Shown here: one piece after another, positions 55,978 to 58,473 of the stretch
Layout of the letters: each line of letters opens with the position of its first letter
Numbering within the stretch: the stretch's first letter is position 1
Assembly: GCF_030013595.1 (NCBI RefSeq)
Contig: NZ_CP122768.1
Length of the DNA: 64,000 nucleotides
Source: Escherichia coli
Lineage (GTDB): Bacteria > Pseudomonadota > Gammaproteobacteria > Enterobacterales > Enterobacteriaceae
Strand: one strand, 5' to 3'
Translations under genes and position numbers: made by a program
Notes under the pieces: generated by a model
Seen by the model: only the letters and a program-made list of their open reading frames with translations
The model's database searches: none
Told to the model about the DNA's origin: nothing

Positions 55978-56544
55978 ATGCCTAAATCTTACACACCAAA
56001 CTGGTTTTTTACCGCCTTACTTGACCATCACATCAATCAAATGATGGCACGCTATTCCTGCCTGCGGGCCTTACGGATGGATTTCTTCTACAGGAAAGAT
56101 ACGCCTGATTTCTTACAACCTGATCACCGCTGGCTTGAATTGCAGTTGCGTATGCTGCTGGAGCAGGTGGAACAATTTGAAAATATCGTTGGCTTCTTCT
56201 GGGTGATTGAATGGACGGCTGATCATGGTTTTCATGCGCATGCGGTTTTCTGGATCGATCGTCAGAGAGTTAAAAAAATATATCCCTTTGCGGAGCGGAT
56301 TACGGAATGCTGGCGGTCTATTACGCATAACAGCGGTTCGGTGCACCGTTGTACATATCAGCCGCATTATACATACAACATCAACATCCCCGTGCGTCAT
56401 AACGATCCCGGGAGCATCGATAATATTCGCGGTGTCCTGCATTATCTGGCGAAAGAAGAACAAAAAGACGGGCTGTGTGCCTACGGTTGCAATGAAGTTC
56501 CTGAACGGCCTGCTGCAGGGCGTCCTCGTAAGCCTCACTTCTGA
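55978..56544 (+). CDS. YagK/YfjJ-family protein (inovirus Gp2-like)
   Basis: 188 aa with family motifs (LRALRMDFFYRKD; FHAHAVFWIDRQ) and a ~1 kb AT-rich upstream leader. Confidence 0.55.
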   Translation: MPKSYTPNWFFTALLDHHINQMMARYSCLRALRMDFFYRKDTPDFLQPDHRWLELQLRMLLEQVEQFENIVGFFWVIEWTADHGFHAHAVFWIDRQRVKKIYPFAERITECWRSITHNSGSVHRCTYQPHYTYNINIPVRHNDPGSIDNIRGVLHYLAKEEQKDGLCAYGCNEVPERPAAGRPRKPHF

Positions 56545-56790
56545 AGCTTAAGGCCTGAGCCTCCGCTCCTGGAAACACTCCGTCGGTAAAACCTTACCGC
56601 CTTGATTAATGATGTGAACCGAAGTCAACGGAGATCATTCACCCTGAACCTGCATCCAGTGTTCTTTCCCTTATCTTCCCGTTCTGCTTCAGTTTTTCAC
56701 TTATTCCATCAATCTCATCCGCAAGCCATAACACGTCAGTTCATTCACGGGTAGGACGCATTGTGGGTTGCGCATAACGGAACATATCTT

Positions 56791-57366
56791 ATGAATGCTA
56801 TTCCTTATTTCGACTATAGCCTGGCCCCCTTCTGGCCGTCTTATCAGAGCAAAGTTATCGGCGTCCTTGAGCGTGCGCTGCGTGAGCAGTCCGGCTCCCG
56901 GATACGGCGGATCCTGCTTCGTCTGCCGTGTGAATATGACAATACCTTCAACAGCAGAACGACCTGGTTTGGTATGGATTTTATCGAAACCGTCAGTGCG
57001 CTGATGAATGCAACACCCGGACGTGACCTCTGCTGGCTCCTGACCCGTCATCCTGAAAAGCCGGAATACCACGTGGTGCTGTGTGTCAGACAGGAGTATT
57101 TCGATGGCCCTGAACTGGACCGGCTGATTCTGGATGCCTGGAGCAACGTACTGGGTTTCGCGTCACCAGGTGAAGCAAAGCCGTACCAGAAGCAGATCAC
57201 CCGGGATGTGGTATTGGACAGTCGTTCACCGGACTGTGAAGACATCCTCAAAGAGTTGATATGGGCGTTCAGTGATTTCGCCCGCGATCGTCGTGGTGTG
57301 TGCGATCCGGAAGCCCGTTGCCTCGCCGGTAATCCCGGCTATCCCGGATCTGCAGGACCGTTCTGA
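56791..57366 (+). CDS. YagK/YfjJ-family paralog (putative)
   Basis: Internal ATG MNAIPYFDYS...; motifs IRRILLRLPCEYD and YHVVLCVRQEYFD parallel the other family members. Confidence 0.45.
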   Translation: MNAIPYFDYSLAPFWPSYQSKVIGVLERALREQSGSRIRRILLRLPCEYDNTFNSRTTWFGMDFIETVSALMNATPGRDLCWLLTRHPEKPEYHVVLCVRQEYFDGPELDRLILDAWSNVLGFASPGEAKPYQKQITRDVVLDSRSPDCEDILKELIWAFSDFARDRRGVCDPEARCLAGNPGYPGSAGPF

Positions 57367-57434
57367 AAGCTCGGTTCAGCATCTTTCCCTGCATTCGCAC
57401 AAACTTCATAAATCTCACAAAGGACATTCTGACC

Positions 57435-57668
57435 ATGTTGACCACAACAAGCCACGACAGCGTGTTACTGCGTGCCGACGATCCCCTGATCGACATGAAC
57501 TACATCACCAGTTTCACCGGCATGACCGATAAATGGTTTTACAAGTTGATCAGTGAAGGCCATTTCCCGAAACCCATCAAGCTGGGCCGCAGCAGCCGCT
57601 GGTACAAAAGTGAAGTGGAGCAGTGGATGCAGCAGCGAATCGAGGAGTCACGAGGAGCAGCAGCATGA
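57435..57668 (+). CDS. AlpA-family phage/island transcriptional regulator
   Basis: 77 aa; LIDMNYITSFTGMTDKWFYKLISEGHFPKPIKLGRSSRWYKSEVEQWM is the AlpA/MerR-like HTH signature. Confidence 0.8.
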   Translation: MLTTTSHDSVLLRADDPLIDMNYITSFTGMTDKWFYKLISEGHFPKPIKLGRSSRWYKSEVEQWMQQRIEESRGAAA

Positions 57669-57924
57669 AACGTGTTGTAATGCCGGTACGCTGGCAATGT
57701 ACAAAATGCTGGCGCTGGTATTGTGGAACCCGGCCCTGCCCCTGGTGCTGGCGACACTCCCGCTTATCTTTCCGCTGACACCCTCCAGTCAGCCAACTGT
57801 TTGTACCTCTTTCCTGACTGATTCGTCATTCCATTCTTATTGATTATAACTGGCATTACACCGGTGCTGGCGTGCTTTCCTGCGTATCTGCACCGGTTTA
57901 ACAAAATTCAACGGGGATAAAATA

Positions 57925-58473
57925 ATGCAGATAACCGAAGCATTACTTGCAGAGCCGGGAGACATCCGGCGTTTTGTTCAGCAGGCGGTGGACCACTGGC
58001 CACATCTGTTGGCATTTCGTTTCACTCTCCGTTCGGCAGAAGGAAGCATCAACGGGCAACAGATTCAGGTATTCTGTACTTCTTTTTACCGACAGGTGCA
58101 CGAACGTATTACTGAGAGTAATCACATGCTCAGTCCATCATCGCCGGTGGTATTACGCTGGTTGCGGGAACAACATGGAGGGGCAACAATACGATGCCTG
58201 TTGCTGCTCAGCCAGGATCTTTTCTGCCATCCGCGAGCCAGTGCCACGGTTGATGAAGCATGTTCACAACTGGTAGATTTACTGCAACAGACCTGGCAGG
58301 TGATAAGCGCTGGCGGACAATGTCGGGTGGAAAAGCGTTTTCAGGTCGCCCGGGGTGATACATCTGGCCAGTATGTTGCGTTAAAAACAGTCGCATTGTC
58401 TCTGGGGTTACCGGTTGTGACCGCCATTACCCATCGTCCGGTACAGCGCTGTACACTGATTACAGCTCAGTGA
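57925..58473 (+). CDS. YagK/YfjJ-family paralog (putative)
   Basis: 182 aa; motifs LLAFRFTLRSAEGS and VVLRWLREQHGGATIRCLLLLSQDLF align with the frameshifted copy at 49629-50359. Confidence 0.45.
   Translation: MQITEALLAEPGDIRRFVQQAVDHWPHLLAFRFTLRSAEGSINGQQIQVFCTSFYRQVHERITESNHMLSPSSPVVLRWLREQHGGATIRCLLLLSQDLFCHPRASATVDEACSQLVDLLQQTWQVISAGGQCRVEKRFQVARGDTSGQYVALKTVALSLGLPVVTAITHRPVQRCTLITAQ

Follow-up and report, generated by a model that had tools for sequence, protein, structure and literature searches.

The window analysed here, a stretch of 64,000 nucleotides from Escherichia coli, carries at 55978–58473 three open reading frames (ORFs), called ORF1, ORF2 and ORF4 below, together with a gene for an AlpA-family regulator that lies between the second and the third. 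We conclude, with a probability of roughly 0.7, that this stretch is one conserved backbone module of common tRNA-associated enterobacterial islands, in which a trio of YagK/YfjJ-superfamily proteins accompanies AlpA. Together with the product of a gene further upstream, at 49629 (the Gp2 gene), the proteins encoded by ORF1, ORF2 and ORF4 appear to be ancient, diverged subfamilies arranged like the spokes of a wheel around a YagK/YfjJ hub. The Gp2 gene, ORF1, ORF2, the AlpA gene and ORF4 are all under purifying selection between island variants, the ratio of non-synonymous to synonymous substitution (dN/dS) being below 0.45 for each; they are maintained, and are not decaying relics. An earlier, sequence-only reading of this DNA had described the ORFs as tandem YagK/YfjJ paralogs with an embedded AlpA gene and had taken their orientation, and an ‘extra’ AlpA, to suggest that at least two island backbones of the same type were fused or nested here, with decay between them mediated by insertion sequences (IS).

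Profile comparisons link all four proteins to YagK and YfjJ

The three ORFs and AlpA are present as previously described, all on the + strand. The earlier assignment to an inovirus Gp2-like family holds at the level of the superfamily, through deep profiles and transitive links, and not at the level of pairwise similarity: BLASTP comparisons among ORF1, ORF2 and ORF4 gave nothing significant. In hhalign comparisons of shallow alignments restricted to E. coli, the probability was at most 3.3%; the resulting alignments were nevertheless in register with the motifs that the sequence-only reading had pointed out. For deeper comparisons, small profiles were enriched with remote homologs located through genomic context, and a hub profile was assembled from YagK, YfjJ, the intact 49629 protein and L010_O1, a YagK-like protein from a Citrobacter locus (L010). 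In hhalign comparisons with this hub, the family of ORF2 reached a probability of 97.1% (E = 7e-11), that of ORF4 96% (E = 2e-9 to 6e-9) and that of ORF1 94% (E = 1.4e-7 over 172 columns), with reversed and column-shuffled controls at 1.4% or below. The ORF2 and ORF4 families matched each other weakly (36%, E = 3.7e-4). A hidden Markov model built from YagK, YfjJ, Gp2 and the ORF2 family was also run against the 359 window ORFs of at least 60 amino acids; ORF4 was its top match outside the training set (14.4 bits, E = 4e-4) and ORF1 came second (9.1 bits, E = 0.018), with noise at 4.6 bits or below.

Both of the motif blocks proposed earlier were found again, at homologous positions in an alignment of all four products. 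The first block, on the first beta-strand, reads ‘LIRVDLRFP’, ‘ALRMDFFYR’, ‘IRRILLRLP’ and ‘LLAFRFTLR’; the second, on the HUH strand, reads ‘HYHVILLLNKD’, ‘HAHAVFWIDRQ’, ‘EYHVVLCVRQE’ and ‘IRCLLLLSQD’. The HUH position and the position of the catalytic-type tyrosine divide the proteins into three types. Type A comprises YagK, YfjJ, the 49629 protein and L010_O1, with H-Y-H and Y-[LM]-x-K, as well as ORF1 and its homolog L008_O1, with H-A-H and Y-L-A-K. Type B (ORF2 and the distant homologs P0308 and P0314) has [ECF]-Y-H, so that only the second histidine is retained, and a tryptophan in place of the tyrosine. In type C (ORF4, L008_O4 and L010_O4) there is no HUH motif (I-R-C in ORF4, CGM or LHG in the others) and no conserved tyrosine. 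The catalytic signature of HUH plus YxxK is present in the 49629 protein and ORF1 and absent in ORF2 and ORF4. Judged by these motifs, HUH chemistry would be possible for type A only, and types B and C look like pseudo-enzymes.

ORF1 falls just short of two Pfam cut-offs, with 24.3 bits on PF23343 (cut-off 27.8) and 19.9 bits on PF11726 (cut-off 25.8). L008_O1, which is 59% identical to it, clears PF23343 at 29.3 bits, and homologs from Enterobacter, Citrobacter, Klebsiella, Salmonella, Serratia and Xenorhabdus carry PF23343 and/or PF11726 in precomputed annotations. RefSeq names ORF1 ‘YagK/YfjJ domain-containing’ or ‘inovirus-type Gp2 protein’, and its homologs are called ‘inovirus-type Gp2’ or ‘rolling circle replication-associated protein’ in their source databases. 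The HUH motif is H86-A-H88 and the catalytic-type tyrosine lies in Y156-L-A-K159; across 40 aligned sequences, the most distant at 37% identity, neither Y156 nor K159 ever varies, and conservation of H86 and H88 is 90% or more. A search for solved structures with the ORF1 sequence profile found no relative.

The Gp2 gene is the canonical member of the family, with ‘HYH’ and ‘YLVK’ both intact. It was correctly recognized earlier as a frameshifted copy: the ORFs at 49629–49940 and 49865–50359 are together the halves of a 243-residue gene, split because an A7 run is one A short and reads A6 at 49842–49847 (alignment to strain MEW). Strains MEW and 2009C-3133 have the uninterrupted gene. PF11726 scores are 29.1 and 72.9 bits for the halves and 116.6 bits for the intact allele; the intact protein also matches PF23343, is about 29–30% identical to YagK and YfjJ (BLASTP E ~1e-24), and has weak PHROG matches to phage replication initiators. 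About 1873–1879 complete E. coli genomes carry the gene. Among the matches listed, the top identity is 99.8% over 501 nucleotides and none reaches 100%, consistent with all of them keeping the extra A. As no listed genome shares the deletion, the frameshift is no trait of the island family and reflects either a private mutation or an assembly error in the homopolymer.

ORF2 is annotated as ‘hypothetical protein’ in E. coli RefSeq, with the same start, and gives no direct match in Pfam, NCBIfam, PHROGs or PADLOC. A phmmer search against 1.84 billion representative proteins returned 39 matches; besides E. coli variants and fragments, these comprised only two distant homologs of full length, P0308 from Pseudocitrobacter (35% identity, E = 3.5e-14) and P0314 from Citrobacter (34%, E = 2.5e-8). 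P0308 clears PF11726 (41.8 bits, E = 1.4e-10, profile positions 4–161 of 170), and the NCBI cluster names of the two proteins are ‘YagK/YfjJ domain-containing’ or ‘inovirus-type Gp2’. An AlphaFold model of ORF2 (predicted local distance difference test (pLDDT) 74.9, predicted template modelling score 0.77) has as its best structural matches the nuclease domains of viral replication initiators (Reps), not relaxases, at 7–9% identity to solved Reps; ORF2 is thus predicted to keep the Rep-nuclease fold. Its HUH motif is cut down to E-Y93-H94, and the tyrosine position is occupied by the tryptophan of a conserved W158xxS161D162xxxD166R167 motif. This tryptophan is invariant in type B, within a block of the form W-x-x-S-D-x-x-R-D-R. 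ORF2 is probably non-catalytic.

ORF4 and its homologs carry the PF27752 domain in precomputed annotations; their RefSeq product names include ‘UCP030791 family putative phage-derived protein’, and some sources call the homologs ‘inovirus Gp2 family’. ORF4 gave no direct match in NCBIfam, PHROGs, PADLOC or a local Pfam copy without PF27752. This is a narrow family: 2 close loci turned up among the 100,044 species genomes scanned, without any gain in diversity. Its remote homologs are L008_O4 (E = 2.5e-10), from a Pseudocitrobacter-type locus (L008), and L010_O4 (E = 3e-6). The latter scores 22.9 bits on PF11726, under the cut-off of 25.8, over profile positions 2–152 of 170, and matches its YagK-like neighbour L010_O1 at E = 6e-10 and YfjJ, YagK, the 49629 protein and P0308/P0314 at E ~1e-4. 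An AlphaFold2 model of ORF4 (pLDDT 64) has a beta-alpha-beta-beta-alpha-beta topology; the fold search with it was non-specific, with HUH proteins at ranks 22 and 26, and a structure search of BFVD was uninformative.

These results bear on the possibility that ORF2 and/or ORF4 are unrelated orphans, their motif blocks being a chance likeness of hydrophobic beta-strands. Neither has a direct Pfam, NCBIfam or PHROG match, pairwise BLASTP and shallow hhalign comparisons are non-significant, and the fold search with ORF4 is non-specific, all of which speaks for this possibility. The match of P0308 to PF11726, that of L010_O4 to its YagK-like neighbour, the 96–97% reached by the enriched profiles against controls of 1.4% at most, the closeness of the ORF2 model to Rep nucleases, and the A-B-C order conserved in other genera nevertheless make an origin by chance very improbable. 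The PF11726 search that had been proposed as a check succeeds for both halves of the Gp2 gene, leaves ORF1 under the cut-off and finds neither ORF2 nor ORF4 directly. Used to refute the family assignment it would wrongly reject ORF2 and ORF4, because neither gives a direct match to PF11726; with Pfam searches alone, two of the three genes would be missed.

One conserved backbone with a divergent ancestral layout

Of 5426 complete E. coli genomes, 1006 contain at least 80% of the 3-kb module; 2971 have parts of it, at a median of 2 places per genome and at up to 8. Strains 2D, F11 and 042 share a layout in which a GTPase gene on the − strand is followed on the + strand by a gene for a hypothetical protein of ~380 residues, the Gp2 gene, a variable slot, ORF1, ORF2, the AlpA gene and, where present, ORF4, with a ProQ/FinO-family gene, also where present, on the − strand. 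The slot holds an acyltransferase gene, ireA, a restriction enzyme gene, an H-NS gene or IS elements; otherwise only the distal end differs.

The same three types recur outside E. coli. In the Pseudocitrobacter-type locus (L008), AlpA is followed by the ORF1-like gene (59% identity), one inserted gene on the opposite strand, P0308 and a PF27752 gene. The Citrobacter locus (L010) has a GTPase and a WYL regulator on the − strand and, on the + strand, a zinc-ribbon gene, AlpA, the YagK-like gene, P0314 and a PF27752 gene. Its YagK-like product scores 130 bits on PF11726 and shares 37% identity with the 49629 protein; identity to the window counterparts is 54% for the GTPase and 52% for the WYL regulator, and no IS separates the two divergent gene groups. 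Each of the three types thus has a separate ortholog in Citrobacter and in Pseudocitrobacter, and the order A-B-C is kept. AlpA has no fixed place: in the E. coli module it separates types B and C, and in the other two genera it stands ahead of type A. Hence the description as tandem paralogs, in the sense of recent duplicates, has to give way to three old subfamilies. A recent tandem duplication was considered and rejected, there being no significant pairwise BLASTP similarity and each type having an ortholog in both Citrobacter and Pseudocitrobacter.

Between island variants, dN/dS is 0.23–0.37 for the Gp2 gene, 0.06–0.15 for ORF1 (leaving out one near-identical pair with two differences only), 0.12–0.30 for ORF2, 0–0.12 for AlpA and 0.31–0.44 for ORF4. 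IS-mediated decay, as proposed earlier, is borne out as far as IS debris does lie between the Gp2 gene and ORF1; it does not extend to the genes themselves, which stand at dN/dS 0.06–0.44 and whose lone frameshift is private. The stretch from the Gp2 gene to ORF1 is an insertion hot-spot that takes up cargo and IS.

The sequence-only reading was right that the module lies opposite to the CP4-44-like block, which is on the − strand. However, because the Citrobacter locus shows the divergence of GTPase and AlpA-YagK without any IS, and because the layout recurs in 2D, F11 and 042, the opposed strands of the module and the GTPase-to-toxin block are ancestral and do not point to fusion. That two island backbones of like type were fused or nested, each contributing a YagK/YfjJ gene and an AlpA gene, with IS-mediated decay between them, is a doubtful and distinctly unlikely account. 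In its favour, the two type-A genes (the Gp2 gene and ORF1) have remnants of IS256, IS21 and another transposase between them, the Citrobacter locus has a single type-A gene ahead of B and C, and a truncated second integrase next to tia, outside the window, implies some accretion at selC. This integrase is, however, ~40 kb distant and beyond a resistance transposon region. The supposed extra AlpA did not materialize either: across the parts of the selC island that were sampled, namely the window and two stretches (L003 and L011, described below), tblastn found one AlpA. Fusion would also have to accommodate the order and orientation Gp2 ... ORF1-ORF2-AlpA-ORF4, kept in 2D, F11 and 042 despite different cargo, the compact Citrobacter form with its IS-free divergence, and the purifying selection on the genes.

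Several observations weigh against the reading of 55978–58473 as a single module of related genes with a shared role. The Pfam cut-off is reached directly by the 49629 gene only, with ORF1, ORF2 and ORF4 below it, and hhalign comparisons of ORF1 with ORF2 or ORF4 are non-significant, the link running through the YagK hub only. That of ORF4 depends on small profiles (4–12 sequences) and the sub-threshold PF11726 match of L010_O4 (22.9 against 25.8 bits), and its model is of medium confidence, with fold matches to generic ferredoxin-like or palm folds. The truncated second integrase, and the presence of two type-A genes in E. coli where Citrobacter has one, favour some accretion. A scan of 54800–59600 for origins, iterons, promoters and terminators gave counts at or below the shuffled expectation, so that no nick site or origin emerged, and no Rfam match was found in the same interval. 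A literature search on YagK, YfjJ, UCP030791, PF27752 and PF23343 found no functional study.

AlpA and the distal end of the module

The small protein encoded between ORF2 and ORF4 can be assigned to the AlpA family on its score above the Pfam cut-off, its predicted small helix-turn-helix form and the presence of an integrase and tRNA-Sec at the far end of the island. It also matches PHROG excisionase/regulator families; in PADLOC it gave a weak match only, to the candidate PDC-M06B.

ORF1, ORF2 and AlpA are near-identical to those of strain 2D (L012; synonymous divergence (dS) at most 0.009), and ORF4 differs at dS 0.16. This jump in dS against 2D indicates a recombination breakpoint between AlpA and ORF4, at 57669–57924. 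In strain 042, ORF4 and ProQ are wholly replaced. The gap between AlpA and ORF4 also holds a 48-residue ORF (57697–57843, + strand), which is annotated in some RefSeq genomes, shifted in 2D and unannotated in F11, and is probably not a real gene. The ProQ/FinO-family gene convergent with ORF4 is present in 2D, frameshifted in F11 and absent or replaced in 042; it often accompanies the module but is dispensable.

A putative role after excision

AlpA activates integrase-mediated excision of CP4-57. The module may be an AlpA-controlled unit for excision and replication or mobilization, with one active nuclease and two non-catalytic paralogs; the mechanism is inferred, since it rests on family chemistry and gene context. 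AlpA would turn on integrase-mediated excision, as in CP4-57 and in other islands and satellites that carry AlpA. ORF1, together with an intact YagK-like protein where there is one, would supply the competent HUH nuclease that nicks a site on the excised circle; encoded beside AlpA, an HUH nuclease is best explained by action on such a circle. The nick could start rolling-circle replication or supply single-stranded DNA for transfer. ORF2 and ORF4 may act as non-catalytic DNA-binding or regulatory partners of the nuclease, because they are motif-less yet always co-linear with it.

A candidate control region precedes ORF1. The leader is ORF-free and AT-rich and is conserved between island variants (window, F11 and 042 aligned); its last ~160 nucleotides (55816–55977) are nearly invariant, exceeding the conservation of synonymous sites in ORF1 (synonymous divergence 0.17). 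Within it, a hairpin at 55916–55937, a unique match, has a 7-bp stem and an 8-nucleotide loop (GAGCGAA-AGCATTAA-TTCGCTC). The leader has no Rfam match, and the Pseudocitrobacter locus lacks the hairpin. We presume that the leader is a promoter, a regulatory region or an origin. A stronger version of the proposal is speculative and rather unlikely: AlpA and types A, B and C would form a dedicated three-part machine for autonomous replication or mobilization after excision, in which the two pseudo-nucleases target or regulate the HUH nuclease and the leader and hairpin at 55816–55977 serve as origin or control site.

HUH nucleases comprise both Reps and relaxases. With the same classification of the three types, the HUH protein could instead be a relaxase-like nickase for mobilization by a helper plasmid or an integrative and conjugative element, ORF2 and ORF4 being accessory, relaxosome-like factors. 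Besides the breadth of the HUH class, this would fit the MobI(A/C) homolog at 62635–63021 in the selC island (PF19456, 97 bits) and the FinO/ProQ-family gene adjoining ORF4, MobI and FinO/ProQ being families associated with plasmid transfer. We consider it unlikely, given that the structural matches of ORF2 are best to viral Rep nuclease domains and not to relaxases, that the Pfam matches are of the Rep type (PF23343), that mobI is absent from the annotated flanks examined of the F11 and 042 variants carrying the module, and that no origin of transfer was identified. A defence system was also considered and set aside, as ORF1, ORF2, ORF4 and the Gp2 protein have no PADLOC match.

Genomic setting

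Context was taken from the annotation of E. coli strain 2009C-3133 (NZ_CP013025), to which the window is identical (100%) over 55000–59500. The window up to ~38000 is core chromosome, from gyrB to yicL in that annotation. A genomic island of ~68 kb begins at ~38000, and its far end, outside the window, consists of a tyrosine integrase and tRNA-Sec (selC). The conserved island genes from 46985 onward are on the + strand (Table 1). The first of them encodes an uncharacterized 376-residue protein without Pfam or PADLOC match, and its position is conserved in strains 2D, F11 and 042. In the window, the cargo slot between the Gp2 gene and ORF1 holds an Mrr-like restriction endonuclease gene and an H-NS paralog gene, as well as the IS256, IS21 and other transposase fragments; an acyltransferase gene or ireA takes this slot in other strains.

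Table 1. Features of the island part of the window (coordinates in the window; nt, nucleotides; aa, amino acids).
Feature	Coordinates	Strand	Remarks
CP4-44-like block	~38100–46800	−	DUF4942, DUF957, DUF5983, CbtA/YeeU toxin-antitoxin, DUF987, JAB/RadC, antirestriction, DUF932, DUF905, WYL-type regulator, GTPase
YfjP/YeeP-type GTPase	45916–46800	−	First gene of the divergent CP4-44-like module
Hypothetical protein	46985–48115	+	376 aa; first + strand gene past the GTPase; uncharacterized backbone gene
Gp2 gene (canonical YagK/YfjJ, ‘inovirus Gp2 family’)	49629–50359	+	Type A1
Mrr-like restriction endonuclease	50687–51565	+	PF04471; cargo slot
Island-borne H-NS paralog	53327–53767	+	PF00816; cargo slot
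Leader 5′ of ORF1	55040–55977	+	~950 nt; 35% GC
ORF1	55978–56544	+	188 aa; Rep-like HUH protein, type A2
ORF2	56791–57366	+	191 aa; type B
AlpA-family helix-turn-helix regulator/excisionase	57435–57668	+	77 aa; PF05930 40.8 bits (cut-off 21)
ORF4	57925–58473	+	182 aa; PF27752/UCP030791 family, type C
ProQ/FinO-family RNA-binding protein	58492–58836	−	PF04352 80.7 bits; convergent with ORF4, 18 nt between stops

Further along the + strand, the MobI(A/C) homolog (RefSeq ‘conjugative transfer protein MobI(A/C)’) has a RhuM-family gene and a type I restriction-modification system as neighbours. Its presence suggests that the selC island might be mobilizable by IncC/IncA-type plasmids. The remaining part of the island in 2009C-3133, outside the window (NZ_CP013025 2315000–2349200; the stretches L003 and L011), contains a Tn21-like mercury-resistance region with a class 1 integron (dfrA1, aadA1, sul1), TEM-1, aph(3')-Ia and an intact integrase beside tRNA-Sec; the truncated second integrase adjoins tia here.

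Relation to known systems

The nearest known counterparts are found in the K-12 islands CP4-6, which carries YagK, and CP4-57, which carries YfjJ. The Gp2 gene is a direct PF11726 relative of both proteins, and ORF1, ORF2 and ORF4 are related to them by profile comparison. Like the window island, CP4-6 and CP4-57 are tRNA islands with a P4-type integrase, AlpA and a GTPase-to-toxin module. The synteny with these islands to which the earlier reading had appealed goes as far as these shared features: each K-12 island has a single YagK/YfjJ gene, with no type B or C partner detectable, where the window island has four members, and the K-12 genes lie on the same strand as the GTPase-to-toxin block, in contrast to the opposite strand in the window. 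YagK and YfjJ retain the HUH and tyrosine signature, which ORF2 and ORF4 are without.

With HUH rolling-circle initiators, such as the parvovirus Rep/NS1 nuclease domain and SIRV1 ORF119, ORF1 and the 49629 protein share HUH, YxxK and PF23343 (below the cut-off for ORF1). By contrast with those Reps, the two are small, single-domain proteins without helicase or oligomerization domain, their genes belong to a chromosomal island and not to a virus or plasmid, and two of the three paralogs, ORF2 and ORF4, are without catalytic residues. The PF27752/UCP030791 family, to which existing annotations and RefSeq names assign ORF4 and its homologs, emerges from the comparisons above as a diverged YagK/YfjJ branch without either motif.

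A preprint on Pseudomonas tmRNA islands counts AlpA and a neighbouring ‘inovirus Gp2-like’ gene as likely core functions, and AlpA-family proteins activate integrase-mediated excision in CP4-57 and related elements (bioRxiv 10.1101/2024.08.29.610337). As in the window, AlpA adjoins a Gp2-like gene in the conserved core of these integrase-bearing islands and of CP4-57. In Pseudomonas, AlpA occupies the integrase-distal end of the element; in the E. coli module, it has type B on one side and type C on the other.

The family name raises the further possibility of an integrated filamentous (inovirus) prophage remnant. The historical Pfam/NCBI name ‘inovirus Gp2’ and the weak PHROG matches of the 49629 product are all that favour this, and we regard it as extremely improbable. 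Inovirus gpII proper sits in a filamentous phage genome among morphogenesis genes, and the window genes have no such annotated neighbours: genes for single-stranded-DNA-binding, coat and Zot-like assembly proteins are annotated nowhere in the window or the 68-kb island. The context is that of a P4-type-integrase tRNA island with CP4-44-like genes, and the module occurs in this island context in >1000 genomes.

Implications

Part of this picture was known already: ORF1 and the gene at 49629 are annotated as family members, and ORF4 has a curated family name and is called Gp2-like in some pipelines. What is new is that profile comparison explicitly connects PF27752 and the ORF2 proteins of E. 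coli with the YagK/YfjJ hub, that types B and C can be proposed as pseudo-enzymes on the basis of their motifs, and that AlpA with types A, B and C is recognized as a conserved set. The module is an ordinary and very common island backbone, and the gain is a clarification at the level of annotation. It nevertheless concerns a unit found, at 80% or more of its length, in about one fifth of complete E. coli genomes, often in several copies, in which ORF2 is still labelled ‘hypothetical’. It also means that opposite orientation and IS debris need not imply the fusion of islands. The proposal provides a testable hypothesis of a post-excision role for those conserved segments of CP4-like pathogenicity and fitness islands that are not cargo. 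If the three-part machine outlined above were real, the cryptic CP4-like tRNA islands that abound in Enterobacteriaceae, usually deemed defective and passively inherited, would gain an autonomous post-excision step.

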